A stretch of DNA of 64,000 bases from Bacteroidales bacterium (GCA_035299385.1 DATGWQ010000075.1:11633-75632), one strand, 5' to 3'; shown: positions 3,465 to 55,507, counted from the stretch's first letter. Notes: generated by a model not told the origin, from the letters alone. Made by a program: numbers and translations.

Positions 3465-3473
3465 GGCTTATTT

Positions 3474-6400: not shown

Positions 6401-6782
6401 TAAAATCACACTTTTTGAAAGTTGTCTTATTCAGAATAACGGAAAAGGAAATTTTGAAGTCATTAAACTCCCTGCGCCTGCACAGTTTTCAGAACTAAGA
6501 GATGTGGTTGTCCTTGCTCCGGATGAAGAGGGGAAAACAGAACTCGTTCTCGCTGGAAACAACAATGCAATACGACCTTCCATTGGCATCCAGGATGCCA
6601 GTTATGGTTTGTTTCTGCAATATGACGCTGAGAATGGATTTATTCCCTTCGGCTCATATCTCAGTGGACTGGTCATAAAGGGAGATGCAAGAAAGCTTGC
6701 TTGCATAATGATCAAAGGAAAGCAGTATGTTGTTGCCGGAATAAACAATGGAGACCTGCAAATAATTTCTCCAGGAAGATGA
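3474..6782 (+). CDS. FG-GAP/VCBS-repeat plus ASPIC/UnbV-type (CRTAC1-like) lipoprotein, paralog 2
   Basis: 1102-aa ORF starting 10 nt after paralog 1. Lipobox LLLASCN. Same repeat architecture (GDINNDGLVDLY, DVNADGLLDIY, ADLDNDGDMDVV; VGSRVTIY..TTRGFMSGSSGVVHFGLS). Collinear with paralog 1, roughly half the residues identical by eye. Confidence 0.85.
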   Translation: MKKSVSVLFLILLLASCNPDVRKGEHLFTLLPSSSTHIHFNNQLTETEQYNIIEYLYFNNGAGVAAGDINNDGLVDLYFTSNQLPDKLYLNKGDLKFEDITQNAGVAGTGDWKTGVTMADVNADGLLDIYVCGVGNYKNFHTRNQLYINNGDLTFTEKASEYGLDFSGLSTQAAFFDYDLDGDIDMYLLNHSVHTVSSYGNASLRNASDSIAGDRLYRNDSREGTTKFSNVTKRAGIFNSQIGYGLGISTCDINNDGYPDIYISNDFHENDYLYINNGNGTFSERLTEMIRHTSRSSMGNDAGDLNNDGFNDIIVLDMLPVEEKIRKSAGGEDDLDLYEFKQQMGYNKQFVRNTLQLNLDCGLFSEIGAYAGICSTDWSWSPLIFDMDNDGLKDIFISTGIYRRANDLDYISFLTGGNRYFPEKDNSSLTDKDLYDKMPVFPNCNYFYRNNGDLTFTNMSGKWGLKTASFSNGAVYADLDNDGDMDVVTNNINDKAFIYRNNSERKYGNHYLEILLRAPSPNSSAVGSRVTIYAGGQIQMKEQFTTRGFMSGSSGVVHFGLSSEAEADSLVIRWPDRSEQKMANINANQRLTIVKDDIKASPYKNELKPAKRFQSAAPEGLNFIHKEDPYNDMLQQNFLVPFSFSAEGPALAVGDLNGDKLDDLFAGGARDCTSAIFFQNKDGSFRRFDIPIRLEDNFSDDVDAVIFDADGDNDNDIYIVHGGNQLVPGNPFLTDNLLINDGNGNFARRKLPFISHNGSCVKPCDFDNDGDIDLLVCSISVPGVFGLSPASYLLENTGSGEFRDVTPLRAKGLGNAGMVSGADWLDYDLDGDMDFAIAGPWMRIKVFENISGHFAETDSVKGLENTYGWWSCLKTIDIDNDGDMDMIAGNLGLNSMLHASPSKPVELYLADFDNNGIPDPIICSYNDGISYPFSSLDELTSQIPDLKKEFRSYSDFGKKTVVDIFGSNVLEKSIHLKITLFESCLIQNNGKGNFEVIKLPAPAQFSELRDVVVLAPDEEGKTELVLAGNNNAIRPSIGIQDASYGLFLQYDAENGFIPFGSYLSGLVIKGDARKLACIMIKGKQYVVAGINNGDLQIISPGR

Positions 6783-28692: not shown

Positions 28693-28733
28693 TGCGCCGG
28701 AATTCCCCTCCCCGGAGGGGGCAGGGGTGGGTT
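28689..28733 (+). repeat. 45-nt conserved element, copy 2
   Basis: gcatgtgcgccggaattcccctccccggagggggcaggggtgggtt. Direct repeat of 26838-26882. Its 3' end overlaps the stop codon of the minus-strand gene 28732..29493. Confidence 0.8.
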
Positions 28734-29493
28734 ATTGCTGTAAGACCTTAATTCCAAGCAAATCCATTACCCCGTTGATGAATGTCAACGGATGCACCGG
28801 GTTTCCGGGGACGTAAAGATCAATCTGATGTTCCTCTAAAAAGCTCCTGTCGAGCGCCGGGCTGCCGGCAAAAATCCCGCCGCTGATCGCATCGGTTCCG
28901 GCAAGAATTATTATACGCGGCGAGGGTATTGCTTCCCATGTGAGCAGGAGAGCCTCTGCCATGTTCTTCGAAATGGGCCCGGTAATCACAATCCCGTCAG
29001 CATGCCTTGGCGAGGCTACAAACTCGATGCCGTATCTTCCCATATCGAAATTGACGTTGCCCGCGGCATTCAGCTCCATTTCGCAGCTGTTGTCGCCACC
29101 GGCAGAGACCTGCCTGAGCTTCAGCGATCCCCTGAAAAGTTTCCTTATCTCCTTCCTGACAAGTTCAGGATCAACGATAATATCCTGTTCCGGCCCCTCT
29201 GCAATGATAAGCCTTTTGCGCTCATTAGTGGCAAACCTGTAGCTGGTTGTAAATTGGATCTTTTCAGGAAAGAGCCTTGCACATTCACCGCAAAAAACAC
29301 ATTTTCCAAGGTCTATACTGACAGGTGCGGTTGATATTGCATCGGTGGGACAACACCCCCCCAAAGCTTTTTCATCCACCTTAACGCTACTGATTACCGG
29401 CAGTCCCCTGAATATCCCGGGGACCCTGGCTTTGGACAGGTCGGGAATGTATTGTTTTCCCTGGTGATATAATATTTTGAGCGTGTTCAGCAT
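28732..29493 (-). CDS. Fused ferredoxin-like (HyfH/HycF-type) plus NuoB/HycG-like small-subunit homolog with degenerate FeS ligands
   Basis: 253-aa ORF. The N-terminal part has GGCCPTDAI and CVFCGECARLFP. The C-terminal part aligns by eye to NuoB/HycG (ASPRHADGIVITGPISKNM). The expected Cys positions read GGDNSCEME, GTDAISGG and PGNPVHP. Confidence 0.7.
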   Translation of the reverse strand: MLNTLKILYHQGKQYIPDLSKARVPGIFRGLPVISSVKVDEKALGGCCPTDAISTAPVSIDLGKCVFCGECARLFPEKIQFTTSYRFATNERKRLIIAEGPEQDIIVDPELVRKEIRKLFRGSLKLRQVSAGGDNSCEMELNAAGNVNFDMGRYGIEFVASPRHADGIVITGPISKNMAEALLLTWEAIPSPRIIILAGTDAISGGIFAGSPALDRSFLEEHQIDLYVPGNPVHPLTFINGVMDLLGIKVLQQ

Positions 29494-29502
29494 ATTTTCT
29501 TT

Positions 29503-30996
29503 CTAAAGATCATGCCCGCAATATGACAGGTTGAAGCTTTTATTGCAGACAGGGAAATCTGAAATCTCGTTGTATCTTACGGCAAGGGCAAGGGCCAGCC
29601 AGTTATGGAAGGATGGATCTTTCACCCTGTAAACTTTAATTTCGCCATCAGAGTCAGTAATTGCCGCATGGCAGGTCTCCCCTCTCCAGCCTTCATTCAT
29701 CGAAATTGCGAATGAATCCGGCTTCGGATTTAAACTGGCTTCACCAGCTGGATCCGGCAAACTGCTGATCAGCTTTCTCACGTAAGCAATTGATTGCAGG
29801 GTCTCTTCCTTCCTTATCTGCACCCTTGAATAAACGTCCCCATGATGCTTGATTACAGGCTTATGATCCAGTTCCGGATAAAGTCCGTACGGATGCGACA
29901 CTCTGATATCTCTTTCGAGGGCATTCATCCTGGCAGCCATTCCGACGGTACCAATCGAAAGCAGTTGTTCATAACTGAGGGCGCCGGTCCTCTCGAATCT
30001 CGAAAGTGCACTGGGAAGTTTCGAAACCTCCCTGTTCATTTCGATGAAATCGGGCTCGAAATTATCAAGTACTGAATTCAGCCTGTCAGCAAGCTCATTA
30101 TTGAAGGCATAAGCATTGTATCCCGGCCTTATCAATCCTTTTCCCAGCCTGTTCCCGCACCATTCCTGCATGAAATTGATTACCGGCGTACGGAGTCTTC
30201 CGAATACCGCGCTGCCGAGCTGATAGGCGATGTCCGTGCAAAGCGCGCTCAGGTCACCCGTGTGAACAGCAATTCTTTCAAGTTCCTGCGCCAGTGTACG
30301 CGCAAAAAGTACTTCCCTCTGCTGCTTTACCCCCGAAAGCGCTTCCGCCAGGAAAGCATATGATGATGCATGTCCCGCGACGCTGTCCCCTGCAATTGAT
30401 TCGGAAAGTACAATTCTCTGGATCGCTTTCTTCTTTTCGAGGAAAAGATTTTCAATCCCCCGGTGCTGGTAGCCAAGCTGTATTTCGAGATGAAGTATCT
30501 GTTCACCCTTGCACACAAACCTGAAATGACCAGGTTCGATTATCCCGGCATGAACAGGCCCCACTCCCACTTCATGCAGCTCCTCACTGTCTATCCTGAA
30601 AAACGGATAGTCGTACATTGAAAGTTTTTTATCGAACCTGTTTTCAGCATACCGGGCCGGTTTGAGCCACGGGTGATCAGAATAATTCAGCCCGAAGCTC
30701 TCATTCAAAACCCTCTCGAATTTCTCAAAATTGAAATTCACCGATGAAAATGATTCCAATGCTGAATCCTGTTCTGCAAGCGCAGAAGAAACCAGTATGT
30801 TATGATTCCGGTCATCGGCAATGCAGCATACAAGCTTTATATGACCCCCTTCATGATATCCAAAATATAATAGGCAATGTCTCTCCGGGTGATCTGTCAT
30901 AAGATCGAGATTTGCTTTCCTGAACTCGCCGTAAGGCATGACAGGTATCAGTGCAACACCCGCGGACTCATTATTATATATAGTTAAAAAGCTCAT
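29503..30996 (-). CDS. NuoC-NuoD / HycE(HyfG)-like large-subunit homolog lacking the canonical NiFe cysteine motifs
   Basis: 497-aa ORF. NuoC-like N-terminus, then GPVHAGIIEPGHFRFVCKGEQILHLEIQLGYQHRGIE (group-4 hydrogenase/NuoD signature). The L1 position reads SESIAGDSVAGH rather than CGICxxxH. The C-terminus reads DFPVCNKSFNLSYCGHDL rather than DPCxxC. Confidence 0.75.
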   Translation of the reverse strand: MSFLTIYNNESAGVALIPVMPYGEFRKANLDLMTDHPERHCLLYFGYHEGGHIKLVCCIADDRNHNILVSSALAEQDSALESFSSVNFNFEKFERVLNESFGLNYSDHPWLKPARYAENRFDKKLSMYDYPFFRIDSEELHEVGVGPVHAGIIEPGHFRFVCKGEQILHLEIQLGYQHRGIENLFLEKKKAIQRIVLSESIAGDSVAGHASSYAFLAEALSGVKQQREVLFARTLAQELERIAVHTGDLSALCTDIAYQLGSAVFGRLRTPVINFMQEWCGNRLGKGLIRPGYNAYAFNNELADRLNSVLDNFEPDFIEMNREVSKLPSALSRFERTGALSYEQLLSIGTVGMAARMNALERDIRVSHPYGLYPELDHKPVIKHHGDVYSRVQIRKEETLQSIAYVRKLISSLPDPAGEASLNPKPDSFAISMNEGWRGETCHAAITDSDGEIKVYRVKDPSFHNWLALALAVRYNEISDFPVCNKSFNLSYCGHDL

Positions 30997-30998
30997 TG

Positions 30999-32429
30999 TC
31001 AGTTTGGCAAAATACTTACAACATCCCTGATCAGCCTGACAAAAACATCAGGAGGATTAAGACCAAGCCAGACAGCAGCGGCAAGAAGCAGGTACTGCGA
31101 AAGCGATTCCCATGGGCTGGTCGCCTGAACAGCGCTGTCATCAAAACCATTTGCAGGTATGAAAAGTATCCTCATTATGTTTTTTCCGAATGCATAAATG
31201 ATGATCGTGAGGAGCAGAAGAACAAGAACAAGCAAAAGAATATGATTGCCTTCAAAGAGTGACCTGAAAATAAGGAATTCACTCACGAACAGCCCTGAGG
31301 GAGGCATCGCAGCAGCACAGACAAACCCGGCAAGCAGTACAATTGCACCGGCAGAATTGTATTTGAAATAATTCCCGGTGTCTTCCATGTTTTTGCTTCC
31401 GAAAACCCTGTAAACCTGGTTGAACTGGAAGAACAGCGATGACTTCACAAAAGCATGCAGAACGATATGCAGTATTGCTGCATAATAACCGATGCCGCCT
31501 GCAGCAATGCCGAGCATAACAATGCCCATATGCTCGATGCCTGAATAGGCGAACATCCTTTTGATATTTGTAACCCTCGACATGTACACTGCAGCAACAA
31601 AAACTGACAGCACCGCGGCGACGATGATCACAAGATTCGCCCAGTTATGAAGGCTTGTAGATGAGATAACGGCATAAAATCTGAAGACGCCGGCAAAGCC
31701 AAGATTCATCAGCACGCTGGCAAGAAGTGCGCCTGCAGGAGCGGGAGCCTTGTCCTTTGCGTCGATACCGGCCGTGTACATCGGCACAAGTCCGAGCTTT
31801 GCGGTAAAGCCTGTGAATATGAACAGGAACGCAAGCCTTAACCAGAATGGGTTCAGCCTGTCCCTCGATGCCATCAGGTTGCTGAATGAAAGATCCCGGG
31901 AACCTGCACCCTGAAGAGATAAACTGAGGAAGAGAATCCCGATAAAGACAAATGTGATGCTTATTGCGCAAATGAAGATGTATTTCCATGTCCCTTCAAG
32001 CGCCAGCTTGTTCCTGTGATGATAGATAAGCGCCGAAGCTGACAGCGTGGTAAGCTCGGTAAATATCCATATCACGGCGATGTGATTCGCGAGATAACCT
32101 GCCGTAATGGAAGAAATCAGGACTATCAATGCAGTAAAATAAATTGCCCTTGACTGAGTTGTGCCTGAATGCCTTTTGATGTAAAGCCAGCTGTGAAACA
32201 CTGCAGGAATGACTATTATGCTGAGCGTGACAAGAAGCAGGATCCCGAGTGAATCAAAGGTGAAATAGGTGAATACGGTTTCATTGTACGACATGCATGC
32301 CCATACAGTGAAGCCGGCTTGCAGCAAAGTAAAAAGAATAACAAGAATATAGTTGGTTTTGGTCTTCCTGTTTATGAAAACCAGCCCGGCAATAAGGTAA
32401 GATGCTATAAGGTATGCTGCAATCATCAT
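30999..32429 (-). CDS. Antiporter-like membrane subunit (HyfF / NuoN-NuoM family)
   Basis: 476-aa polytopic ORF. Proton_antipo_M-type segments (FTGFTAKLGLVPMYTAGIDAKDKAPAPAGALLASV, FAYSGIEHMGIV, HAFVKSSLFF). Confidence 0.8.
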   Translation of the reverse strand: MMIAAYLIASYLIAGLVFINRKTKTNYILVILFTLLQAGFTVWACMSYNETVFTYFTFDSLGILLLVTLSIIVIPAVFHSWLYIKRHSGTTQSRAIYFTALIVLISSITAGYLANHIAVIWIFTELTTLSASALIYHHRNKLALEGTWKYIFICAISITFVFIGILFLSLSLQGAGSRDLSFSNLMASRDRLNPFWLRLAFLFIFTGFTAKLGLVPMYTAGIDAKDKAPAPAGALLASVLMNLGFAGVFRFYAVISSTSLHNWANLVIIVAAVLSVFVAAVYMSRVTNIKRMFAYSGIEHMGIVMLGIAAGGIGYYAAILHIVLHAFVKSSLFFQFNQVYRVFGSKNMEDTGNYFKYNSAGAIVLLAGFVCAAAMPPSGLFVSEFLIFRSLFEGNHILLLVLVLLLLTIIIYAFGKNIMRILFIPANGFDDSAVQATSPWESLSQYLLLAAAVWLGLNPPDVFVRLIRDVVSILPN

Positions 32430-32435
32430 TTCATT

Positions 32436-33068
32436 TTAAAAATCCTTCAGGTTGCTCAGCTGATCCACATCCGCATCCCTGAACACATCGCCGATCTTGT
32501 TCAGGAAAATACCCAGTATCAGCACACTCGCAAACACGTCGAGCATCACTCCGAGGTTGACAAGCCCGGGCATCTCATTGCCCACAGCCAGTGATAATAC
32601 GAAAACACCGTTTTCTATCATCATATAACCCATCACATGAGTTATGATCTTTTTTCTTGAAGCTATTAAGTACAACCCTGTGAAAAGTGTGGACAGGGAA
32701 ACAATGAAGAAGAGCTTGTCAAGGTTTGTATCCTTTACCGAACCTGCAAGCAGCACCGTAACAACCACGATCAGTGTTGTGATCAGCAGAGATATGAAAT
32801 TGGGCAGATAGGGCTCTGCATCCCTCGTGATTTTATTTCTCTTTATCAGGTAACCGAGAAATACCGGTACTGCCACAGCCTTGAAGACAACCGTCTCCAG
32901 AAGGATCAGTACCAGGTTGACCGTATTCATTTCGGACAGTTGCATGAAGGCAACCGAAAACAGCAGTAAACCCTGAAGCGCCAGCACTCTCACATAGGTG
33001 ATGATCCTGTTTGCAATTGAGACATAAAACAGTGTTATTATAAATATTATCAGTAAAACGTCTGTCAT
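32436..33068 (-). CDS. Small polytopic membrane subunit (HyfE-like)
   Basis: 210-aa ORF with about 6-7 TM helices. It sits at the HyfE position between HycD-like and HyfF-like genes. Called from position and hydrophobicity only. Confidence 0.55.
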   Translation of the reverse strand: MTDVLLIIFIITLFYVSIANRIITYVRVLALQGLLLFSVAFMQLSEMNTVNLVLILLETVVFKAVAVPVFLGYLIKRNKITRDAEPYLPNFISLLITTLIVVVTVLLAGSVKDTNLDKLFFIVSLSTLFTGLYLIASRKKIITHVMGYMMIENGVFVLSLAVGNEMPGLVNLGVMLDVFASVLILGIFLNKIGDVFRDADVDQLSNLKDF

Positions 33069-33079
33069 TCTGGCATTGA

Positions 33080-33991
33080 TTATGCAAATTTCCCGAGAAC
33101 GAGCAATGCTCCCAGGAAGATTATGAAACTAACTGATGAAAGTGCGAGGATAAACTGTGGATTATGGCTCATCCTGAAACGGGCCATGAACGATTCTATT
33201 AATCCCGCAGTAACGGCAAACATTAGCTGGATGCCGATAAATACCGGGACAGCAACCGCAAGTTGCAGCCCGGTTATGAAGAAATTTGCTATAAGTGCGC
33301 CGTAGATAGCAAACTTCAGATAACCGGCCGTAAGTATAAGTCCGAGATCGAACCCGCTGTTATCGAGTATCATCACCTCGTGGACCATTGTAAGCTCGAG
33401 GTGTGTTTTCGGATCATCGACAGGCATCCTGCTGTTCTCGATCATGGCGATCATTATCAGCACGAATGCAGCCAGGCCACCGAGCAGGTAGGTCACATAT
33501 GAACCCAGGTGTAGGCTGGCAAAAATTTCCCGGAACGATGCATGTCCTGAGATAAGCGCGAATGATCCGATGAGCACAAAGAAAGCAGGCTCGGCAAAGA
33601 GCGAGTACAAAGCTTCCCTGCTTGCCCCCATTCCCTCGAAGCTGCTGCCCGTATCCATTGCAGCAATGATGCTGAAGAATTTTCCCAATGCCAGCATGTA
33701 TGCAAAAAAAACAAAATCACCGTCAAAGCTCATTATCCCTTTTTCACCGCTGAAAGGAATTACAAGGGCGGCCATCAAAACCGTGCTAATGTAAATTGAA
33801 GGTGCAATCCTGAAAATAACGCCGGTCGTGTCGCTTATGACAGCTCCCTTCCTGAATAACCTTATGACATCCTTTACCGGCTGGATAATTCCGGGCCCTT
33901 TTCTGCCTGATGCAAGGCTTTTTGTCCGGTTCACAGTGCCTGTGAAGAAAACTGCGGAAAATAATATCAGCGTTAAACTCAGCATTGTCAT
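33080..33991 (-). CDS. NuoH / HycD(HyfC)-like membrane subunit
   Basis: 303-aa polytopic ORF. N-terminal region ..GRKGPGIIQPVKDVIRLFRKG.. and ..SSFEGMGASRE.. fit the NADHdh (NuoH/HycD) family. Its ATG overlaps the upstream stop (ATGA at 33988-33991). Confidence 0.75.
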   Translation of the reverse strand: MTMLSLTLILFSAVFFTGTVNRTKSLASGRKGPGIIQPVKDVIRLFRKGAVISDTTGVIFRIAPSIYISTVLMAALVIPFSGEKGIMSFDGDFVFFAYMLALGKFFSIIAAMDTGSSFEGMGASREALYSLFAEPAFFVLIGSFALISGHASFREIFASLHLGSYVTYLLGGLAAFVLIMIAMIENSRMPVDDPKTHLELTMVHEVMILDNSGFDLGLILTAGYLKFAIYGALIANFFITGLQLAVAVPVFIGIQLMFAVTAGLIESFMARFRMSHNPQFILALSSVSFIIFLGALLVLGKFA

Positions 33992-36024
33992 AAAGATTTT
34001 AAGATATGAAGAGCCGACATTATCTTATCCCAGAGCAGCGGAAGCAGCAGGACGGTTGTAATAAAGATGATACCATAAAGAATGTACCGCTGCAGCCTCC
34101 CGTTCTGAAGAAAGCGGAAAGCATCAGTGATCCGGTTGATGAGCTTCAGGGATCTGTCAATCAGAACCTTTTCAACCTTGTCGTAGGGATGCGTCTCATA
34201 ATGCTTTTCACCCGGGAAAATTTCAGTTACTTCATCTTCGTGCTTTTCAATTTCGAGCACAGGCCTGGCCAGCTTCGAATATGTGCGCACATATGATGTT
34301 GCCGTGTACTGCAGCTTGCTGTCAGCAGCAGGATAACCGCATCCCCATGTCGGGCCTGTCCTGACCTCCGATTTCCTCGTGGCAACCTTCCTTATGCCGA
34401 TGATGAGAAGGACAAGGACAATGAACAACGCTGAGAGCCTGCTGATGCTGGTAAGGGAATCCAGGGCTTCGATCCTTGCAAAACGGGTGCTGACGGAGCC
34501 ACCGGCTGTCAGAAGATTCACAGGCTGCTTCAATGCCCCGATGAAGAATGAAGGGAACAAACCGATAAGTATGATAAGCCCTCCGGTAAAATACATCGGA
34601 ATAAGGCCGCTTTTTGAAGTTTCTGTAATGTTACCGTAATCGGAACGTGCGGTGCCGAGGAAGACTATGCTGAAAGCTTTCGTAAAGCAAAGTATGGCGA
34701 GCCCGCCGATAAGCGCCAGTCCCGTCAGTGCGAAAACGACTGCAACCTGCGAGATCACTCCTGCACTGAACAGCCAGTTGTAGAGTGAGCCATAGATGAT
34801 AAATTCCGAAATAAAACCATTGAGTGGCGGCAGCCCGCATATTGCAAGGGCTGCCAGAAGAAAGAGCAAGGCAGTAGATGGCATTTTTTTCATTATTCCT
34901 CCCAGCTTTTCAATATTCATCGAATGTACTGCCTGCAGGATATTTCCCGCGCTGTAAAACAGCAGTGATTTGAACAAAGAATGATTGAGCGTATGAAGAA
35001 GGGCGCCGGAAAAACCAAGCACAGCCATCCAGGTATTGCCTGTTCCCATGCCGATGCAACCTGCACCGATGCCAATACCTATAATGCCGATGTTTTCAAT
35101 ACTGTGGTAAGCCAGAAGACGCTTAAGATCATGCTGAATTGTGGCAAGCATAACCCCATACACACCCGAAACCAGTGAAATGACAAGGATAAAACATCCG
35201 GCAGTGAACCAGTCTACCTTCATCACCAGCAGAATCCTGAGAATCCCGTAAATGCCTATTTTTATAACAACGCCCGACATTATTCCTGAAACATGCGAAG
35301 GCGCTGCAGGATGTGCAAGCGGCAGCCAGGTATGGAATGGTATAAAGCCCGCTTTCAGCGCAAAACCTGCAAAGAAGAGGATGAAGAGCGCGGTGCCGTC
35401 GAGAGAGGGACGTGACGAAGAATACTGAGTTATTGCATCAAAATCATATGACCCTGCCTTAACTGCATAATACATAAAGCCGAGCATAAGAAGGACAATG
35501 CTGATATGAGACTGGACAAGGTAATTGATGCCCGCTTTTATCACAGACGGATTGCTGCTTTCAAATATCACGAGGATGAAAACTGCAAGAGCCATCACCT
35601 CCCATAAAAGAAGGAAGATGAAGCTGTTTCTCACCAGGCATACTCCGACAAGCGAAAAATGAACAAGGATGAAAGCAATTGTGTGAAGGGTTATGGCATT
35701 TTTCCTCTCACTGTATTTCCTCATGTAGTTGAAGCCATAAAAGGCTCCTGTAAGCATGGTGAAATTGATAACAAGGATGAACCATGCTGACAACGAATCC
35801 AGCTCAACACTTACCGGGCCAAACATTGCCGGTCCCGCAAGATCGGCACTGAAAGGAACGGAGATGAGTGATTTAAAGGAAAAAAACGACGTTACCGCAG
35901 ACAGGATGACTATTGCCGAAAGTGCAACAAGACCTTTTGCTCCAACCTTTTTCAGAAGTATAATTGAAACAATGGAGATAAAAAGAACAGCAATAAGTGC
36001 ATTTACCCAGCCTGCAAAGTTCAT
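33988..36024 (-). CDS. Antiporter-like membrane subunit (HyfB / NuoL family)
   Basis: 678-aa polytopic ORF. WEVMALAVFILV, FAGFALKAGFIPFHTWLPLAHPAAPSHVSGIMSGV, LAYHSIENIGII and HSLFKSLLFYSAG are Proton_antipo_M hallmarks. It is the first gene of the minus-strand cluster. Confidence 0.8.
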   Translation of the reverse strand: MNFAGWVNALIAVLFISIVSIILLKKVGAKGLVALSAIVILSAVTSFFSFKSLISVPFSADLAGPAMFGPVSVELDSLSAWFILVINFTMLTGAFYGFNYMRKYSERKNAITLHTIAFILVHFSLVGVCLVRNSFIFLLLWEVMALAVFILVIFESSNPSVIKAGINYLVQSHISIVLLMLGFMYYAVKAGSYDFDAITQYSSSRPSLDGTALFILFFAGFALKAGFIPFHTWLPLAHPAAPSHVSGIMSGVVIKIGIYGILRILLVMKVDWFTAGCFILVISLVSGVYGVMLATIQHDLKRLLAYHSIENIGIIGIGIGAGCIGMGTGNTWMAVLGFSGALLHTLNHSLFKSLLFYSAGNILQAVHSMNIEKLGGIMKKMPSTALLFLLAALAICGLPPLNGFISEFIIYGSLYNWLFSAGVISQVAVVFALTGLALIGGLAILCFTKAFSIVFLGTARSDYGNITETSKSGLIPMYFTGGLIILIGLFPSFFIGALKQPVNLLTAGGSVSTRFARIEALDSLTSISRLSALFIVLVLLIIGIRKVATRKSEVRTGPTWGCGYPAADSKLQYTATSYVRTYSKLARPVLEIEKHEDEVTEIFPGEKHYETHPYDKVEKVLIDRSLKLINRITDAFRFLQNGRLQRYILYGIIFITTVLLLPLLWDKIMSALHILKSL

Positions 36025-36193
36025 CTCAAATTCTCACGAGGGATTAAAAAAAACGGTGGCAAAGAAAAGAAAAAATATTCAATAGTGGGGTTAATGGTGA
36101 TAAAAACCTGTTCTCAGTAAAAATTATTCCACAAAAATCTTATTAGGATCCTGCATGTACAAGGGCAGGTTTCAGGTAAATTATCCACATCAT

Positions 36194-36235
36194 AAGAATT
36201 ACGTAATTAATTCCGTAATTAATTACGTAATTCTT
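36194..36235. promoter_or_regulatory. Perfect 19-bp inverted repeat (4-nt loop) carrying two TTACGTAA palindromes; operator or terminator candidate
   Basis: AAGAATTACGTAATTAATT ccgt AATTAATTACGTAATTCTT, checked base by base. It lies about 170 nt upstream of the Hyf-like cluster start (36024) and 17 nt downstream of the stop of gene 36252..37319. Confidence 0.6.
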
Positions 36236-36251
36236 TTAAGCGGGTAGTTTT

Positions 36252-37319
36252 TTATTTTCTTTTGATCGAATTGATAAAGGTGTATGAAATAGAAGCGCCC
36301 ATTTCAAACTTATTCATTTTCAATTCATTGTCCTGGTAATAATAATCATTCAGCAAAAATTCCTTCTGCCTTCCATTGCCGGGATTTGCCAGGCTCGTAA
36401 GGCCAAGGTAGTATCTCAGGTCAAGATATAATCCAACATTTTTTATCCTGTACCCGATCCCTGCACCCGCAAGCCATTCAAAATTCAACCTGTTCCGGGC
36501 TTCGATGACGTTTATGCCGTTGACATAATAAGTCATGTTTGCAGCATTGTCAGTCTTGCTTACGTTGGCAGTTGTTTTGGTCAGGTACAATGCACCCAGC
36601 CCTGAAGCAACATATGGTTTGAGATTCTTTGCAATCGTAAAATACTTTTTGGCATATACCGGGATCTCCACGAATTCTGGCCATTCCTGGTAATACAGGT
36701 CAAGGTCGGGTTCCCTTGAATAACTTTTATAATAGTAGGATGTCCACCACATCAGATCTGCGTTCAAAGAAATATTCCTGTCAAATTCTACCTCTGCCCA
36801 GCCGTAATATGAGAAAAAGTATGCTCCGGCTCCATATGGTTCGCTGTTCAGAGAACCATCCGGCAGAGAAAAGACCTTTGTCGTGTTGAAACCTGTCCAG
36901 AGAATGACATTCCTAATGCCAAGAGATAATGCGGGATGAATTTTATATTTCCTGATAAGCCGGTTGTATGATTCAAAATTATCATCTTCATTTAATTCAT
37001 AATGAGGATATTTATGAAGCAATACCTCCGCCGAACGCCTTGCCTGAAGCTCGTCAGGGATCTCGGTGTATGCTTTTGTCAGAAGCTCCAGGGCATGCTC
37101 CCTGTCCTTCCTTGCAAGATCCCTGTTATTCAATAATTTCTGAACCGAAGCGGTGCATTCCTCGTATAATCCCTGTTGATACAATTTTTCTGCATCGGCA
37201 AGTTTTGTTTTGGGATCCGGATTATAAAAGGTAACGGTCTGACTCTGAATGGAGAAACCATTGATCAGAAAGATCAACAGCAAGCATAAGCGTATATATC
37301 CAGAGTTATTTTGAATCAT
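36252..37319 (-). CDS. Secreted protein: TPR-like helical N-domain plus C-terminal outer-membrane beta-barrel-like domain
   Basis: 355-aa ORF. Signal peptide (LCLLLIFLINGFSIQSQ). Helical region (AEKLYQQGLYEECTASVQKLL..ALELLTKAY). Then alternating-hydrophobic, aromatic/Gly-rich strands (AGAGIGYRIKNVGLYLDLRYYLGL, FEMGASISYTF). It starts 5 nt after the upstream stop. Confidence 0.6.
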   Translation of the reverse strand: MIQNNSGYIRLCLLLIFLINGFSIQSQTVTFYNPDPKTKLADAEKLYQQGLYEECTASVQKLLNNRDLARKDREHALELLTKAYTEIPDELQARRSAEVLLHKYPHYELNEDDNFESYNRLIRKYKIHPALSLGIRNVILWTGFNTTKVFSLPDGSLNSEPYGAGAYFFSYYGWAEVEFDRNISLNADLMWWTSYYYKSYSREPDLDLYYQEWPEFVEIPVYAKKYFTIAKNLKPYVASGLGALYLTKTTANVSKTDNAANMTYYVNGINVIEARNRLNFEWLAGAGIGYRIKNVGLYLDLRYYLGLTSLANPGNGRQKEFLLNDYYYQDNELKMNKFEMGASISYTFINSIKRK

Positions 37320-37324
37320 ATAAA

Positions 37325-40159
37325 CTATCTTTTTTGGGTCAGTGTCGTATCGGAGATGATACCCGGTATCTTTTCACGTATCATATCAGCAAGCTTCATA
37401 TATGATGTTTCCCATATCCTTATGCTTTTATCGGATAATCCTGCGACCAGTTTGTCATCCTTTGTAAAAACAAGTGATCTCACCCGTCCGGGAAGGTTTT
37501 TAAAGTGCACCACTCCGCCGTATGTGTTATTCCTTGAAAAATACTCATCGACATAGAACAGGCTTATGGTTCTATCCCGGCTTGCCATAGCCAGCAGCTT
37601 ATTGTCATTGCTGAAAGCCATTTTGTCAATACCGGATTTATTCTGTTCCACCCGGTACTCAAACCGGACCGGATCTTTCCTGCTGAACACACCCATCGAT
37701 CCGGATTGATAACCGACTACGAGCTTCCTGCCTGCCATCCCCATTGATAAAGGTTTATCGTTAAAGGACGCCAGGTTCTCAGTTTTACCGTTCTTCATGA
37801 TATTTACTGATCCGTCACTGCAAGCATAAAATACTGTATCAGGACTGCAAAAAAGGACAGAAAGTACTTCTGAGGAAACCCGGAAGGTTTTCAATAAAAC
37901 GGGAGAATCTGATACATTCCATATTTTAATGATGCTGTCGTTAGCGCCTGTAACGAGGTACCTGCCACGATCACAAAAGTCAGCTGACCTGATGATTCCG
38001 CCTGATGGAATTTTGAAAGGTTCAAATCTGCCGGTTCCCATTTTAGTCAATTTCCATAAACTGATTTCACCGTTATCGCACTGGGTAAGAATGTTTTGAG
38101 ATACTCTGTCAATTTGAACAAACCTCACAGGTGAGCCTGTATTGAGCTGTTCGCTCCCCGATACTTTTCCGTCAGAAGTCCATCTGCAAAATTTGCCGTC
38201 AAGATCAGCGGTTGCGATAAATAAGGAATCATCAGCTATACTCCATATCTCAGATCCTGTTCCCGTAAAAACGGAATGTCTTGCACTGTCCGCGACTATC
38301 CATGCTTTATTCAGGGCTTCATAGATCACCGGGTCGTAATCCGGTCCACCATTGTCAAGGTTGTATTTATATGAAAGGTATGCCAGGGTGCAGCCTATTT
38401 TCGGAGTATTCTCCAGTGAGACGTTACTGAGTGAGCTCAGAGCCAGGTTCTGCGCTTTTGAAAGATTGCTCATCCTGGTGGATGCAGCTTCAGCTTCAAC
38501 AGCTTTCTGCCTTTCATGTTCTGCAACGTTCCGCTGTTCTGTGGCAATTCGTGCCTGTTCAGTTGATTCGATGGTCAGTTTTTCTGCAAGGCTCTTCTGC
38601 TGGATTGCGAGTTCTTTCTGTAAAAGAGCTTCCTTCCTCGACTGCTCGGACTGTGACTGTGCCACGAGGGCAATCTGCTCATTCTTCACTGCCAGGTCCT
38701 TTGACCGGACTGCTTCTTTTCTTGCTGAGTCAGCAACCATCATGGCCCTGACGGCAGAGTTCTTCTGCTGCTCGGCAATATCCTGCTGCACGACGGCATT
38801 CCGCTTTTCGCGCATCGCCCATATCGTAAAGAAAGAGAGTATGGCGATCAGCACAGCCGCTGAAATTATCATCGCATTCTGGCGGCGCCTTTTGGCCTTA
38901 TGAATTATTCTTTTGCTCTGGGAAATAAACTTTGTAAGCTTTTCATTCAGGAACAGCTTGTCCTCGTAAGGGGCAATATATTCCAGATCGTCTGAATTCA
39001 GGTAAAGGTTTCTTCGCTCGAAATTATTCCAGCTGTTTTCAATGAATTGCCTGATCTCCAGAAGCTCTTTTTCGACAAGGGTGATCTTTTCATATATGCA
39101 TGAAGCAAGACTGTCGTGACGAAGCTCGTATCTTCCGTGTTCATCCTTGTCGCGGAGGATCCTGAGCTTTATAAATTTCTGGATGAGGTCTTTCACCTTT
39201 TCATTTCCAAGCTCTTTCCCCAGGGTCCGGGTATATTCGATCACTTCATCCTCTGTTATCTGGTGCTTGGTGCCATGTACCGATACAAAAGATTTGAGGA
39301 TGACCAGGCCTGCATCAGGATCATCGAGCCTGGATATCTGCTCCTCGAGGAAAGCTCCAAGCAGGTCTTTCACATCGCCGATCTTTTCGGTATGTGCAAG
39401 GCTCAGCCTTATTACATCCTCATTCTCCTCAGAAGCTATCCTGAAAAGCTTGTCGAGATAGACCTGGAGGTAAGTCAGCTCGACCTCAGGATTGTCCGGG
39501 TTCAGTTTTTCCAGGATGATCTTTGACAGGCCCTCATCGGTTGCAATCCTGTTTACTTCACAGGGTCCCTCAATGGCTTTTGCAGCATTCTGCCTGGTCA
39601 TTTTCTCGATCCTTATCCTGTTATCGAGGAAATCAGGTATTATCTTTTCAAATTCCGTGAAACCGGCAAGATACTCCTCACGCATGGAGAAAATCAGCCG
39701 GCACTGGATATCCGAATCTATGATCTTCTTTACTGTCTGAATGAATTCCTCCCTTTCGGCACGGGACCCGAATATGAATACTTCCTCAAACTGGTCAAGA
39801 ATGAGAAAAATGGGTTTGAAATGATCGAGATAAACTGACCTGAGGAGCTTAAAGATGCTTTTCGAATTTTCACCGGGAATACTCGAAAGCATATTCCGTT
39901 TCAGCGATTCATAAAGGCTCAGGTTTATGTTCGATCCCCTCCTGATATTTACAGGGAGCCAGTCGGAATCGTTGAACTTGTTTGCAAGGCCGCAATTTAT
40001 CAATGATGATTTTCCGGTTCCTGAAATTCCGTATACAACAAGTATCCTGCTCTGAAAGACTCTTGAGTGAAGCTCTTCGATCTCATTGTCGCGGCCAAAG
40101 AAAACATTACGGTCTTCTTTGGAATAGCTGTCCAGGAATTTGAACGGGCTCTTTTTCAT
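37325..40159 (-). CDS. STAND-like P-loop NTPase, single TM helix, long coiled coil, C-terminal WD40 beta-propeller
   Basis: 944-aa ORF. FFGRDNEIEELHSRV..ILVVYGISGTGKSSLINCGL (Walker A) and PIFLILDQFEEVF (Walker B). TM at about aa 430-452 (KAKRRRQNAMIISAAVLIAILSFFTIWAMREKRN). About 110 aa Q/E/K/A-rich coiled coil. WD40-like blades (ISLWKL, IKIWNV, SIRIWET). Confidence 0.8.
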   Translation of the reverse strand: MKKSPFKFLDSYSKEDRNVFFGRDNEIEELHSRVFQSRILVVYGISGTGKSSLINCGLANKFNDSDWLPVNIRRGSNINLSLYESLKRNMLSSIPGENSKSIFKLLRSVYLDHFKPIFLILDQFEEVFIFGSRAEREEFIQTVKKIIDSDIQCRLIFSMREEYLAGFTEFEKIIPDFLDNRIRIEKMTRQNAAKAIEGPCEVNRIATDEGLSKIILEKLNPDNPEVELTYLQVYLDKLFRIASEENEDVIRLSLAHTEKIGDVKDLLGAFLEEQISRLDDPDAGLVILKSFVSVHGTKHQITEDEVIEYTRTLGKELGNEKVKDLIQKFIKLRILRDKDEHGRYELRHDSLASCIYEKITLVEKELLEIRQFIENSWNNFERRNLYLNSDDLEYIAPYEDKLFLNEKLTKFISQSKRIIHKAKRRRQNAMIISAAVLIAILSFFTIWAMREKRNAVVQQDIAEQQKNSAVRAMMVADSARKEAVRSKDLAVKNEQIALVAQSQSEQSRKEALLQKELAIQQKSLAEKLTIESTEQARIATEQRNVAEHERQKAVEAEAASTRMSNLSKAQNLALSSLSNVSLENTPKIGCTLAYLSYKYNLDNGGPDYDPVIYEALNKAWIVADSARHSVFTGTGSEIWSIADDSLFIATADLDGKFCRWTSDGKVSGSEQLNTGSPVRFVQIDRVSQNILTQCDNGEISLWKLTKMGTGRFEPFKIPSGGIIRSADFCDRGRYLVTGANDSIIKIWNVSDSPVLLKTFRVSSEVLSVLFCSPDTVFYACSDGSVNIMKNGKTENLASFNDKPLSMGMAGRKLVVGYQSGSMGVFSRKDPVRFEYRVEQNKSGIDKMAFSNDNKLLAMASRDRTISLFYVDEYFSRNNTYGGVVHFKNLPGRVRSLVFTKDDKLVAGLSDKSIRIWETSYMKLADMIREKIPGIISDTTLTQKR

Positions 40160-40168
40160 TTCAACATA

Positions 40169-41251
40169 TCATAATGCGCCCGGTGATATAAGCGAAACCA
40201 TCTGCCTGAATTCGGTCAGGAGTATGTCGTAATTCTTCAATGACCTGAGATCCACTTTCTCCGTTACTTCGGTTCCCAGGTACATCAGCTGGTCATTCCG
40301 GAATTTGGAATACATGAAGATGTCCTTTTTAATATCGAATTTCTCCTTTGAATCGAGTATTTCCGTGCTTGTGTCAATGATCAGCGGAGAAAGATTTAGA
40401 TAAGTGTCGATTGATTTTATACTCTTCAGGAGAAGCACTGAGTGGCTGTCTGTATAAGTTGATTCGTCAAACTCATTAGCCTTGAAATCGGAATCGGAGC
40501 TGTTGAGCAGATCGAAGATATGATGGAATGAAGCTTTTGTCATTTTCGATTTGAAGACTTTGATTTCCTTCACTGAAACCAGCCTGTATTTTGCAAGGAA
40601 TGATATCCTGGATAAAATAAAGGTCAGCTTTTCTTCATATTCGACGCATCTCTTTTCGATTTCCTCCTGGGTAAGGTTGATCTGGTAATGGCCTATTTCG
40701 TTCCGTTCCGGGACCCAGAAATCCAGCGCGGCATAAAATTTATCATCACAGCAGCCGGAAAGCTCGGGCATAAACCATTCTATCTTCTGGGAAGAAAACA
40801 TGTTTCCCATAGCCCTTATCATCCAGGAATAATTGCCGAGGCTAAGAACAAGGAACCTGTTTTTGAATTCCTTAGCAAAGCTTTCACTGATCTTTATGCT
40901 GCCTTCCTCGCACATTTTTGAAAGCTGCGAGAGCATAACGAATGACAGGAACTGCATTGACCTCTCAATAGTTTTGAAAATCTGGTCAAGGCGCATCCTG
41001 TCGAGCTGCCGCATGGACCCTGAGAAGAGCCTCCTGAGCTCCACTCCTACCGGCCACGGAAAATTCTTGATAATCAGGTCTGCAAGTATCCTGTAATCAG
41101 GCAGGTCGCCTTCATCTTCATCGGTAAGGACCATTTTTGACAGAGATGCCTTATGTTTCAGCATTTCATCAAAAACTTTCCTTATAAGGTCTTCATTTAT
41201 GCTTGCCATCCCCTTATTATGACTAGCTAAATTTATAACTTTTTTATTCAA
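40169..41251 (-). CDS. Hypothetical 360-aa protein, first gene of the STAND cassette (no recognisable domain)
   Basis: The ORF-track start at 41251 is TTG; an ATG alternative lies at 41209 (MASINEDL). No signal peptide or TM. Helical N-half, mixed C-half. Its stop lies 9 nt before the NTPase start. Confidence 0.6.
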   Translation of the reverse strand: MNKKVINLASHNKGMASINEDLIRKVFDEMLKHKASLSKMVLTDEDEGDLPDYRILADLIIKNFPWPVGVELRRLFSGSMRQLDRMRLDQIFKTIERSMQFLSFVMLSQLSKMCEEGSIKISESFAKEFKNRFLVLSLGNYSWMIRAMGNMFSSQKIEWFMPELSGCCDDKFYAALDFWVPERNEIGHYQINLTQEEIEKRCVEYEEKLTFILSRISFLAKYRLVSVKEIKVFKSKMTKASFHHIFDLLNSSDSDFKANEFDESTYTDSHSVLLLKSIKSIDTYLNLSPLIIDTSTEILDSKEKFDIKKDIFMYSKFRNDQLMYLGTEVTEKVDLRSLKNYDILLTEFRQMVSLISPGAL

Positions 41252-46792: not shown

Positions 46793-47814
46793 TCAAAGAT
46801 CTTTCTCCTGTTCAGCTCTGCCTGGTACTGTGCTGCATAACGGTTATGCTCGCTGAGAGTCCTGGAAAAGTTGTGATATCCTGAAAAATCAGCCTTCGCT
46901 GCAAAATAAAGATAATCGTTATTCTCAGCATTCAGTACGGCCTCGATGCCCTGTATCGAAGGACACCCGACAGGTCCGGGGGGTAGACCTTTATATTTAT
47001 ACGTATTATAAGGTGACTCGACAACAAGGTGCTTCCTGAGCACCCGGGTGATCGTAAAATCATTCAACGCAAACTTAATGGTGGGACATGACTGAAGAAG
47101 CATTCCCCTTTTCAGCCTGTTGAGGTATACACCTGCAATGCGTGGCTTCTCGTCCCCTTTGGCAACTTCATCGTCCACTATTGAGGCGAGTATTGAAACA
47201 TCGAGGGGGGTCAATCCCTTTGCTTTTGCACGTGCGATCCTGTCCTGGTTCCAGAAATTATGATACTCCTTCAGCATCCGTGAATAGAAGCCCTTTGCAT
47301 CTGTATTCCAGAAAATCTGGTAAGTGTTAGGCAAGAAAACCGAAATTATTGTTGCCCGGTTGAAGCCATCGGAAGCATAGTTTCTTTCATCATTGAAAAA
47401 AGCCATCAGGCTTGAAGAATCACCTTCAATCCTTCCGCCCAATCTTCCTGCAAGCTGGGCAAGCGTTCGTATGTTATTGAATGTGACATTTACGGGTTTT
47501 TGCCTGCCTGCCCTCAGCATATCGATGAGCCCTGAATAGTTCACACCCGGATCGATCATGTATCTCCCCGCTTTTACATGCTGCGGATAACCTTTCCTGT
47601 CCGCAATCCAGTCAAAAACCTTCTGGTTCTCTATTCTCGTGACTGTATTAATGCTGTCTATAACATCCTGGTATGTCGAGCCGGTAGGAATAAGAAGAAC
47701 CTTGCTCTCGTCCCCGGTGTTAAGCCTGAGCCCTGAATAGCCCTTCCACATAAAGAAGAGAGCTATCAACAGCAGTGATGCTGCAGCTGCAAGTATGATT
47801 CTTCCTTTTTTCAT
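46789..47814 (-). CDS. mltG: Endolytic murein transglycosylase MltG (YceG-like)
   Basis: 341-aa ORF. N-terminal TM anchor. ILASIVDDEV, GVYLNRLKRGMLLQSCPT and SPYNTYKYKGLPPGPVGCPS match the YceG family. It overlaps the convergent murB end by 4 nt. Confidence 0.85.
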   Translation of the reverse strand: MKKGRIILAAAASLLLIALFFMWKGYSGLRLNTGDESKVLLIPTGSTYQDVIDSINTVTRIENQKVFDWIADRKGYPQHVKAGRYMIDPGVNYSGLIDMLRAGRQKPVNVTFNNIRTLAQLAGRLGGRIEGDSSSLMAFFNDERNYASDGFNRATIISVFLPNTYQIFWNTDAKGFYSRMLKEYHNFWNQDRIARAKAKGLTPLDVSILASIVDDEVAKGDEKPRIAGVYLNRLKRGMLLQSCPTIKFALNDFTITRVLRKHLVVESPYNTYKYKGLPPGPVGCPSIQGIEAVLNAENNDYLYFAAKADFSGYHNFSRTLSEHNRYAAQYQAELNRRKIFD

Positions 47815-47872
47815 TCTGAATCAGCAGGAGGCAAATGTAGGCAATTATTCATATAGTTTCTTAAATTTGCTT

Positions 47873-48262
47873 ATGACAGTTAATATGAAGGATATGACGA
47901 CAGCAACATTGCTTATACTTGTGGGGATAGGCGTACTTACCGGATTTTTTGCAGGAATGCTTGGCATCGGGGGAGCAATAATAATGGTTCCTGCCCTCGT
48001 ATTCATACTTGGGCTGACTCAGCAGAATGCACAGGGCACAAGCATTGCCGTAATGTTGCCCCCGATAGGCATAATCGCAGCATTGAATTATTACAAACAG
48101 GGCCAGGTGAATCTCAAATTCGCTTTGATCCTGGCTGTCTTCTTTATTGCAGGGTCATATTTCGGGTCAAAGTTTGCCCTTTCCGTCCCTGAAAACATGC
48201 TGAAAAAGATCTTCGGAGTGCTACTTCTGGCCGTTGCACTAAAGATGCTTCTCTCCAAATAA
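47873..48262 (+). CDS. Small TauE/SafE (DUF81)-type membrane protein
   Basis: The ORF opens at 47795 and overlaps the mltG start. The internal start MTVNMKDMTT (47873) is preferred. GVLTGFFAGMLGIGGAIIMVPALVF is the TauE-family signature. 4 TM helices. Confidence 0.6.
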   Translation: MTVNMKDMTTATLLILVGIGVLTGFFAGMLGIGGAIIMVPALVFILGLTQQNAQGTSIAVMLPPIGIIAALNYYKQGQVNLKFALILAVFFIAGSYFGSKFALSVPENMLKKIFGVLLLAVALKMLLSK

Positions 48263-54918: not shown

Positions 54919-55500
54919 TCACATCATACGTGAGGCGTATTGTCTTCCTGCGTCGAGGGCTTTAATATTTATCGAGACCACCTCCTCCCCTTTTCTCTCA
55001 AAAAGCTTTTTAACAGCATTCTCCAGGGTTGAAAAGGGCACACTGATGAAGTGCGACCCGGCTCCAAGCATCACTATATTCCCTGCGCGTGCCGAGCCTG
55101 CTTCCTTTGCGACAAGGTCAGCATCTATGATGATGTGATTCCTGACTTTCCTTATTTCTTTCAGAATGTCTTCGACAGGAGGATAATCAGGGATATTTAT
55201 GAACGGGGCTGAATTCGTGACTATCCATCCTTTATGCGACAGCCAGGGAAGATACCTGAGGGATTCCATCGGTTCGACTGAAAGGATAAGGTCAGCAGAT
55301 CCATCAGGGATGAGATCAGATGCCACAGGCTGATCAGAGAGCCGCAGATGAGACTGGACATCTCCCCCTCTCTGGCTCATTCCATGCACTTCGGATTGCT
55401 TGAGATAAAGATTGTTTTCAATTGCAGCAAGCCCGATTGCAGCCGCAATTGACAATATACCCTGACCGCCGACGCCTGATAAGATAATATCGTTTTTCAT
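54919..55500 (-). CDS. iorB: Indolepyruvate:ferredoxin oxidoreductase beta subunit
   Basis: The ORF opens at 55584 inside iorA. The start MKNDIILSGVGGQGILS at 55500 (8 nt after the iorA stop) is preferred. GVGGQGI and EVHGMSQRGG are POR-gamma/IorB motifs. Confidence 0.85.
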   Translation of the reverse strand: MKNDIILSGVGGQGILSIAAAIGLAAIENNLYLKQSEVHGMSQRGGDVQSHLRLSDQPVASDLIPDGSADLILSVEPMESLRYLPWLSHKGWIVTNSAPFINIPDYPPVEDILKEIRKVRNHIIIDADLVAKEAGSARAGNIVMLGAGSHFISVPFSTLENAVKKLFERKGEEVVSINIKALDAGRQYASRMM

Positions 55501-55507
55501 AATGACT

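Follow-up and report, generated by a model that had tools for sequence, protein, structure and literature searches.

The 64,000-nucleotide stretch from a Bacteroidales bacterium (GCA_035299385.1 DATGWQ010000075.1:11633-75632), referred to here as the window, carries a six-gene operon on its minus strand at positions 28732-36024. An initial annotation, made from the sequence alone, described it as a Hyf/complex-I-like membrane module with the order HyfB, HycD/NuoH, HyfE, HyfF, NuoCD/HycE and a ferredoxin/NuoB fusion. This order was borne out by Pfam and NCBIfam matches, and the open reading frames (ORFs) coincide with the coordinates given there. The genes are separated by 9, 2, 6 and 11 nt and share one 4-nt ATGA overlap, as the described gaps of 2-11 nt and single overlap require. 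The operon, assigned below to the energy-converting hydrogenase-related (Ehr) family, consists of the following genes:

33988..36024, minus strand: EhrA, HyfB-like antiporter-like subunit, 678 aa (NCBIfam hydrogenase-4 subunit B, 520 bits; Pfam Proton_antipo_M)
33080..33991, minus strand: EhrB, NuoH-HycD-like membrane anchor, 303 aa (Pfam NADHdh, 1e-33)
32436..33068, minus strand: EhrC, HyfE-like (NuoK-related) membrane subunit, 210 aa (NCBIfam PRK11492, 7.8e-21; Pfam Oxidored_q2, 3.8e-5)
30999..32429, minus strand: EhrD, HyfF-like antiporter-like subunit, 476 aa (Pfam Proton_antipo_M; NCBIfam hydrogenase membrane subunit / HyfF)
29503..30996, minus strand: EhrL, fused NuoC and NuoD/HycE-like large subunit, 497 aa (Complex1_49kDa, 4e-30, and a weak NuoC match)
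28732..29493, minus strand: EhrS, degenerate NuoI/HycF-like ferredoxin domain fused to a NuoB/HycG-like domain, 253 aa (Pfam and NCBIfam: Oxidored_q6, 1e-19, and a weak Fer4/NuoI match at residues 56-98)

The six proteins are divergent, because every NCBIfam score falls well below the curated cut-off. All reading frames are intact and the translational coupling is tight. The operon is self-contained: upstream, a 227-nt gap separates it from genes for an outer-membrane beta-barrel protein and a STAND-NTPase/WD40 protein, and downstream a gamma-glutamyltranspeptidase gene converges on it.

Ehr complexes are defined by a group-4-type large subunit without the NiFe-binding cysteines (PMC6349859, PMC10284858, PMC12342949). 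The published set comprises a NuoC-D fusion, a NuoI-NuoB fusion, HyfB, HyfF, NuoH and HyfE (PMC6349859 supplement). The first Ehr described, from Geobacter, consists of EhrA-1/A-2/B/C/D/L/S (PMC7894505), and other members occur in Nitrospira (PMC10284858, PMC12342949), ammonia-oxidising archaea (PMC10432482), mycobacteria (PMC6728331), bacteria of the candidate phyla radiation (PMC7304191), Desulfotomaculum (PMC3569383) and relatives of Cyanobacteria including Margulisbacteria and Melainabacteria (PMC6349859). The family has been known since 2005, and its function was still stated as unknown in the literature of 2023-2025. The subunit set in the window is the same as the published one, in agreement with the Ehr-like character proposed initially. 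The Geobacter sulfurreducens genes EhrA-1/A-2/B/C/D/L/S (GSU0739-45) are said to have been reported by Coppi in 2005, and Ehr was reportedly treated as a family by Marreiros et al. in 2013.

EhrL was compared with the large subunits of hydrogenases. Three of its segments are relevant, the last of them invariant in the clade of close Bacteroidota relatives described below:

30370..30402, minus strand: former L1 NiFe motif ESIAGDSVAGH (E199-H209), with the Cys positions now A202 and S205
29506..29535, minus strand: former L2 NiFe motif and true C-terminus, FNLSYCGHDL, with the Cys positions now S491 and G494
30520..30561, minus strand: beta1-beta2 loop GPVHAGIIEPGHFR, of the HycE type

In the HMMER alignment with the solved structures HycE (7Z0S) and MbhL (6CFW), the HycE segment RVCGICGFAH pairs with SIAGDSVAGH of EhrL (Cys to Ala and Cys to Ser). 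Likewise, DPCYSC of HycE pairs with NLSYCG (Cys to Ser and Cys to Gly). The register is identical in a MAFFT alignment with 150 cluster representatives that include true-Cys relatives, and mis-registered EhrL motifs were therefore rejected. EhrL contains neither the L1 CxxC(x3)H nor the L2 [DE][PL]CxxC motif of group 4 [NiFe] hydrogenases. All motifs quoted in the initial annotation are present in the translations, and alignment with reference subunits upholds its reading that both Cys pairs are lost. Residues G203 and D204 are invariant in the clade, while C493, next to the former L2 position, is off-register and 53% conserved. The end of EhrL coincides with the C-terminal cleavage position of HycE, which indicates that EhrL has no maturation extension. 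The missing extension and the four missing NiFe ligands support the earlier statement that this is not a hydrogenase, and the complex would be unable to make or use H2. The quinone-binding Tyr of E. coli NuoCD pairs with G203, and the loop His, H157, is present in a HycE-type context.

The closest solved structures to EhrL are HycE and MbhL (both 1.3e-26; the match to MbsL is weak, 4e-10), and its relatives carry the JGI label 'Ni,Fe-hydrogenase III large subunit'. Both facts could be taken to mean that EhrL belongs to a genuine group-4 [NiFe] hydrogenase whose motifs were mis-registered. However, non-Cys residues occupy all four ligand positions by two alignment methods, and the one nearby cysteine, C493, is poorly conserved. 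In addition, no hyp, endopeptidase or formate dehydrogenase (FDH) genes were found among the scanned window ORFs of at least 150 aa, a scan that leaves out small ORFs of HypA/HypC size; within this range the initial statement on their absence holds. We therefore give this alternative practically no credence. The AlphaFold2 (AF2) model of EhrL (pLDDT 72) has HycE as its best fold match (7z0s_E, Foldseek E 7e-17, TM-score 0.69). This monomer model is unreliable at the pocket and the C-terminus.

About 140 of the 150 nearest 50%-identity cluster representatives (E-values down to 1e-149) share the motifs xGD[ST]...H and FNLSY-x-G-x-DL. Six more distant relatives (34-38% identity) are true hydrogenases with CG[AV]C...LCYSC. 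In a neighbour-joining tree without support values, these true-Cys sequences are basal to the Ehr large subunits. The window thus has a large subunit without the NiFe cysteines, the operon composition of Ehr and a large subunit that groups with those of Ehr, and the HyfB-like and HyfF-like genes provide the two or more antiporter-like subunits expected. Judged from these sequence comparisons, the operon is a member of Ehr and a descendant of the Hyf-type group-4 [NiFe] hydrogenases. It has neither the quinone Tyr and N2 cluster of the complex I Q-module nor the full A-G set of Mrp nor the set of three clusters of MBS.

The small subunit EhrS has lost most of its iron-sulfur (FeS) ligands. Its conservation was scored over 77 loci and 120 protein clusters, and four segments are of interest:

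29083..29094, minus strand: former proximal-cluster CxxC, now D134-N-S-C137 (D134 100%)
28891..28893, minus strand: third proximal-cluster Cys, now D201 (Asp 99-100%)
28792..28803, minus strand: former GCPP motif, now N231-P-V-H234 (N231 98-100%, H234 100%)
29266..29352, minus strand: sole complete FeS site, C48-P49 and C65-x2-C68-x2-C71, with F75 at the lost fourth Cys of motif 2

The proximal cysteines of MbhJ, HycG and Nqo6 pair with D134, C137, D201 and N231, so that three of the four ligands are lost, exactly as D, D and N, in accordance with the initial assignment. Position 137 is Cys in about half of the 120 clusters and Thr, Ser or Asn in the remainder. The four-Cys proximal [4Fe-4S] site of group 4 [NiFe] hydrogenases is therefore missing from EhrS. 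The best matches of the protein in the PDB are MbhJ (1e-20) and HycG (5e-19).

Alignment with the two-cluster ferredoxin from a relative that is a true hydrogenase shows that the first ferredoxin motif of EhrS keeps its last cysteine, C48, and has lost the first three. C48 is 99% and C65, C68 and C71 are 100% conserved over the 77 loci, and the same xxxC-CCCx pattern is found in the 120 protein clusters. In standard ferredoxins with two [4Fe-4S] clusters, the last Cys of one motif completes the cluster of the other. By this wiring, C48, C65, C68 and C71 would form one complete [4Fe-4S] site, the others being lost. The AF2 model of EhrS (pLDDT 50) is too poor to be used, the stretch with this site being its confident part.

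In the membrane arm, EhrA keeps E142 in transmembrane helix (TM) 5, K224 in TM7, K255 in TM8, the H344/H348/K352 group and E407 in TM12, each conserved in at least 95% of 63 orthologues; its best PDB matches are HycC (4e-57) and MbhH (2e-55). In EhrD, E125 (TM5), K211 (TM7) and E384 (TM12) are present, and the TM8 Lys position of E. coli NuoM, MbhH and MbsH is taken by N242. EhrC carries the conserved membrane residues E58, E152 and E165. By these alignments, the arm retains the Glu, Lys and His residues that are canonical for the ion pathways of complex I, Mrp and MBH. EhrB, whose best PDB match is HycD (2.8e-22), differs from HycD and NuoH in the following segment:

33353..33424, minus strand: remodelled EhrB TM5-6 loop PVDDPKTHLELTMVHEVMILDNSG, canonically PFDxxEAExEL...EYSG

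The TM5-6 loop of NuoH is a coupling element in complex I. In EhrB the loop residues D192, D193, K195, H197, E199, H204, E205 and D210 are each at least 95% conserved, and the remodelled form PVDDPKTHLELTMVHE is common to all sampled Ehr types, with or without FeS clusters.

Close relatives of this operon (59-71% EhrL identity) were found in at least 585 species genomes, counting one genome per species. Nearly all carriers are metagenome-assembled genomes (MAGs) of Bacteroidales or other Bacteroidota, among them Prolixibacteraceae, Lentimicrobiaceae, Paludibacter and Salinivirgaceae. Gene order is conserved among them: of 80 loci, about 48 contain a second HyfB-like gene and so resemble the seven-gene form of Geobacter, and about 14 have the six-gene form of the window. 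The alignments show that three features are gone from this Bacteroidota subclade: the NiFe site, the N2-type proximal cluster, and one ferredoxin cluster out of two. The FeS-depleted form appears to be newly described here for the Bacteroidota clade; an N2-less EhrS may have been mentioned earlier.

The median dN/dS values, obtained by the Nei-Gojobori method for pairs with dS of 0.05-1.5, are 0.086 for EhrS, 0.072 for EhrL, 0.034 for the NuoH-like, 0.028 for the HyfE-like and 0.047 for the HyfF-like gene. These low values in five of the six genes indicate strong purifying selection and rule out a decaying relic. Such a functionless remnant of a hydrogenase might be considered because every catalytic ligand is gone, and a 2026 paper assumes the Geobacter Ehr to be 'nonfunctional' (PMC13194489). 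One Mucinivorans MAG even has only the HyfF-like and EhrL-like genes left (L088, 6538-9400), with AAGS in the pocket and not AGD[ST]; that locus looks like an operon in decay or a minimal two-gene derivative. But the reading frames of the operon are intact, the operon recurs in at least 585 species genomes, and the Geobacter proteome shows all Ehr subunits (PMC7894505). Decay thus deserves very little belief.

The state of the FeS clusters varies between Ehr lineages. The EhrS of the Melainabacteria/Lentisphaeria type (46% EhrL identity) has all 12 cysteines in 110 of 120 clusters, whereas the window clade has four ferredoxin cysteines and D/D/N at N2. Lineages L084 and L090 have also kept all clusters, and L087 and L089 are in the same N2-less, one-cluster state as the window. 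Among the lineages with the small-subunit gene first, L081 has all N2 cysteines and L083 has none and no ferredoxin domain. L083, L105 and L118 have no FeS ligands and no ferredoxin domain at all, and their pocket motif is still the same. In general, the EhrL pocket motif does not differ between Ehr forms with all clusters and FeS-depleted ones. Only a minority of Ehr has lost the proximal cluster, with the Bacteroidota clade as the largest group in this state, as most small subunits sampled elsewhere keep N2. The neighbour-joining tree is star-like and is compatible with single as well as multiple N2 losses.

The NiFe site, the proximal cluster and the quinone Tyr are all gone and one isolated four-Cys site is left, so electrons would be unable to reach the old active site. 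The activity of the clade would then not be hydrogenase-, quinone- or MBS-like catalysis. On balance, and with some reserve, we favour a functional, FeS-depleted Ehr complex that is not a hydrogenase and translocates ions with no electrons being delivered to the former active site. That it is a redox-independent ion translocator in the full sense is put forward only tentatively. Such a translocator might be an Mrp-like cation/proton exchanger, or it might contain a proton path gated by the soluble cap. The invariant polar pocket of E199, G203-D204-S/T205, S491-Y492, G494 and D496, together with the NuoH loop DDPKTHLELTMVHE, could serve as the trigger, by protonation or by binding of a ligand. 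The [4Fe-4S] cluster that is left could be structural or a redox sensor. In its most specific form, a complex-I-type machine without any electron transfer, the former hydrogenase/quinone module would be a protonatable or ligand-sensing gate that drives or controls ion movement in the antiporter arm, and a non-Cys cation site of D134, D201 and N231 might fill the old N2 cavity; this form is somewhat unlikely.

The initial proposal of an ion-translocating module with an unknown or non-redox input can be accepted in its first part, which fits the conserved residues of the membrane arm. The non-redox part is inferred rather than demonstrated, because the single complete [4Fe-4S] site is so strictly conserved. 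Several observations weigh against ion movement uncoupled from electrons. The conserved cluster is not obviously needed by a purely non-redox machine, and Na+-module subunits like MrpB/C/E/F/G are absent from the operon. The monomer AF2 models are poor at the pocket and also at the subunit interfaces, and a literature search found no papers on the structure or biochemistry of Ehr. In the broader metagenome sample, 62 of 67 Ehr small subunits keep all four N2 cysteines; three of the other five are truncated at contig ends, and only L105 and L118 lost the N2 ligands. The ancestral job may therefore have been redox, and the function of the clade may have changed.

The strictly conserved cluster and the frequent N2 of other Ehr suit an alternative in which the complex is still a redox enzyme. 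Electrons from ferredoxin would pass through the [4Fe-4S] cluster to a new non-Cys metal or cofactor site, or straight to a substrate, and drive pumping, as the FeS-catalysed chemistry of MBS does. The new site would lie at the former N2 position and consist of D134, C/T137, D201, N231 and H234, where the invariant Asp, Asp and Asn replacements are plausible metal ligands. However, the residue at position 137 may be C, T, S or N. In about 20 other Ehr loci, an intact N2 occurs alongside a single-cluster ferredoxin of the window type, which suggests that the retained cluster is the N2-adjacent, N6b-like one; the assignment of the EhrS cysteines to the individual names N6a and N6b is presumed here. 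The order of the electron chain is Fd-N6a-N6b-N2 (PMC7021789). Most other Ehr keep N2, as described above, but the independent lineages L083, L105 and L118 replaced all ligands and have no ferredoxin domain. Genes for 2-oxoacid:ferredoxin oxidoreductase are present in the window (54919-57106, minus strand; POR_N/TPP and POR gamma domains), indicating that the organism has a ferredoxin-linked anaerobic metabolism. Yet no acceptor-specific subunit or partner gene was found in the flanks of the clade loci or of the diverse Ehr loci, and Gly stands at the quinone-binding Tyr position. On the whole, a redox enzyme of this kind is improbable.

The genes adjacent to Ehr operons were compared as well. 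After clustering the flanks of the 80 clade loci (L001-L080), no conserved partner gene emerged; the commonest neighbour, a divergent Crp/Fnr-family regulator immediately upstream, is found in 8 of 80 and does not occur in the window. In the flanks of 65 diverse, non-Bacteroidota loci (within L092-L171), neither FDH nor NuoEF genes adjoin Ehr. Regulatory genes are found there, namely a histidine kinase in 9/65, a sigma-54 NtrC-type response regulator in 9/65 and an ArsR-family helix-turn-helix protein in 8/65, and several of these contigs carry two Ehr operons in tandem.

Transporter genes are a second group of neighbours. SulP-family (Sulfate_transp) transporters adjoin Ehr in 5 of the 65 diverse loci, including L119 (11417-13180) and three other metagenome loci. 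In L089 (2577-4256) a SulP transporter gene lies directly downstream of the N2-less EhrS gene, and a P-II protein is encoded close by on the other strand. Downstream sequence is available for two FeS-free loci, L083 (8693-17677) and L118 (9254-12804). Their ehr operons begin with the small-subunit gene, and an F1Fo ATP synthase operon (a, c, b, delta, alpha...) lies downstream of each. In L083 a CBS-domain protein and an ArsB/CitMHS-type anion transporter are encoded between the ehr genes and this operon. A Na+-type c subunit next to FeS-free Ehr was considered and is unsupported, as the c subunits there carry the motif AEA of the H+ type.

These neighbours could be read as signs of energy-coupled, non-redox chemistry, in which the pocket would catalyse or gate a proton-linked reaction, for example vectorial handling of CO2/bicarbonate or of other anions, along the lines of the cyanobacterial NDH-1/Cup and DAB systems. 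The SulP genes, the CBS protein with the anion transporter, and the F1Fo operons would all suit such a role. Nevertheless, none of the three is conserved as a neighbour in the window clade, and no subunit resembling a carbonic anhydrase or a Cup protein is present. The associations are also few and could result from synteny alone, which makes this chemistry distinctly improbable.

Upstream of the operon in the window lies the following feature:

36025..36251, minus strand: upstream intergenic region, 227 nt, presumed promoter region

Scans for a sigma-70-like consensus upstream of ehr and for terminators gave nothing above shuffled controls, and the Rfam scan of the window gave zero matches. 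A perfect palindrome with 19-nt arms, AAGAATTACGTAATTAATT-ACGG-AATTAATTACGTAATTCTT, is found at 36193-36236. It occurs once in the window, just past the stop codon of the outer-membrane protein gene and some 170 nt before the first ehr gene. A terminator hairpin and a local operator are both conceivable; a conserved operator was rejected, since the palindrome is missing upstream of 60 related operons. Directly upstream of ehr, at 36252-41251 on the minus strand, is a cluster of three genes for a 360-aa ORF without a Pfam family, a 944-aa nSTAND1 NTPase-WD40 propeller fusion and the outer-membrane beta-barrel protein. This may be a signalling or defence-type STAND system.

Other parts of the window contain genes of different character. 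Two tandem genes for FG-GAP/ASPIC-UnbV repeat proteins of about 1100 aa (126-6782) are followed by a carbohydrate-related cluster with ketohexokinase-like, 3-keto-disaccharide hydrolase, GFO/IDH/MocA oxidoreductase, MFS transporter, glucuronyl-esterase-domain and heparinase II/III-like proteins. A 155-aa ORF at 47795-48262 on the plus strand matches only the first 110 of the 237 positions of the profile for the sulfite exporter TauE/SafE and may represent a truncated or frameshifted gene. A 477-aa ankyrin-repeat protein, uncommon in bacteria, is encoded at 61269-62702 on the plus strand.

The operon can be placed among the known systems as follows. With the known Ehr complexes it shares the subunit set and fusions, the loss of the NiFe cysteines, the EhrL motifs GD[ST] and NLSYxGxDL and the remodelled NuoH loop. 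Most clade relatives have the seven-gene order of the Geobacter Ehr with two HyfB-like genes, whereas the window has six genes and a single HyfB-like gene; the likeness to the Geobacter type cluster GSU0739-45 was drawn by gene names and order alone. For the large, NuoH-like and HyfB-like subunits, the best matches in sequence and fold come from the formate hydrogenlyase of E. coli, HycBCDEFG (7Z0S). Homologues of the hydrogenase-4 (Hyf) subunits HyfE and HyfF are present, and the HycE-type EPGHFR loop is kept. Unlike formate hydrogenlyase and Hyf, however, the window operon has no NiFe ligands, proximal cluster, HycB/FdhF input module or C-terminal maturation peptide, and one ferredoxin cluster instead of two.

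The Pyrococcus complexes MBH (6CFW) and MBS/Mbx (6U8Y) are likewise built of complex-I-like modules and contain antiporter-like subunits. A precedent of a NiFe-less descendant that still conserves energy is MBS (PMC8165549). It has three FeS clusters, the proximal one being catalytic (PMC8165549), while in the window the proximal cluster is gone and one four-Cys site is left; the Mrp-type Na+ module subunits are also absent. Complex I and NDH-1 share the homologous NuoB, C, D, H, I, K and L/M/N folds and the conserved TM5 Glu, TM7 Lys and TM12 Glu/Lys. In the window, by comparison, Gly203 replaces the quinone Tyr, the acidic residues of the NuoH loop are replaced, and N2, separate NuoA/J genes and the N-module are absent. 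The Mrp antiporter contains MrpA/D-type PF00361 subunits with the same key residues, and its mode of action would be similar should the redox-independent reading hold. However, Mrp has no NuoB/C/D/H-like cap, and the window has only MrpA/D-type and NuoK-like subunits, without homologues of MrpB/C/E/F/G.

Ehr is widespread, now also in hundreds of Bacteroidales, and has been without an assigned function for two decades. In Bacteroidota MAGs its genes at present carry the labels 'Ni,Fe-hydrogenase III' or 'NADH-quinone oxidoreductase subunit C'; when metabolism is reconstructed from such MAGs, they should be treated neither as hydrogenases nor as NADH dehydrogenase subunits. The membrane arm, the Ehr pocket and the NuoH loop are still strongly constrained after the FeS wire has been cut. 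This suggests that in this clade the conserved job is independent of electrons reaching the old active site, and it makes the proposed roles as FDH-Ehr or as a hydrogenase-like enzyme less likely here. If there is indeed no electron transfer, the clade would be a natural 'redox-dead' mutant in which the conformational coupling of the complex I superfamily can be seen in isolation. The clade may also help to study, in a natural setting, how complex-I-like machines couple when redox chemistry is absent.

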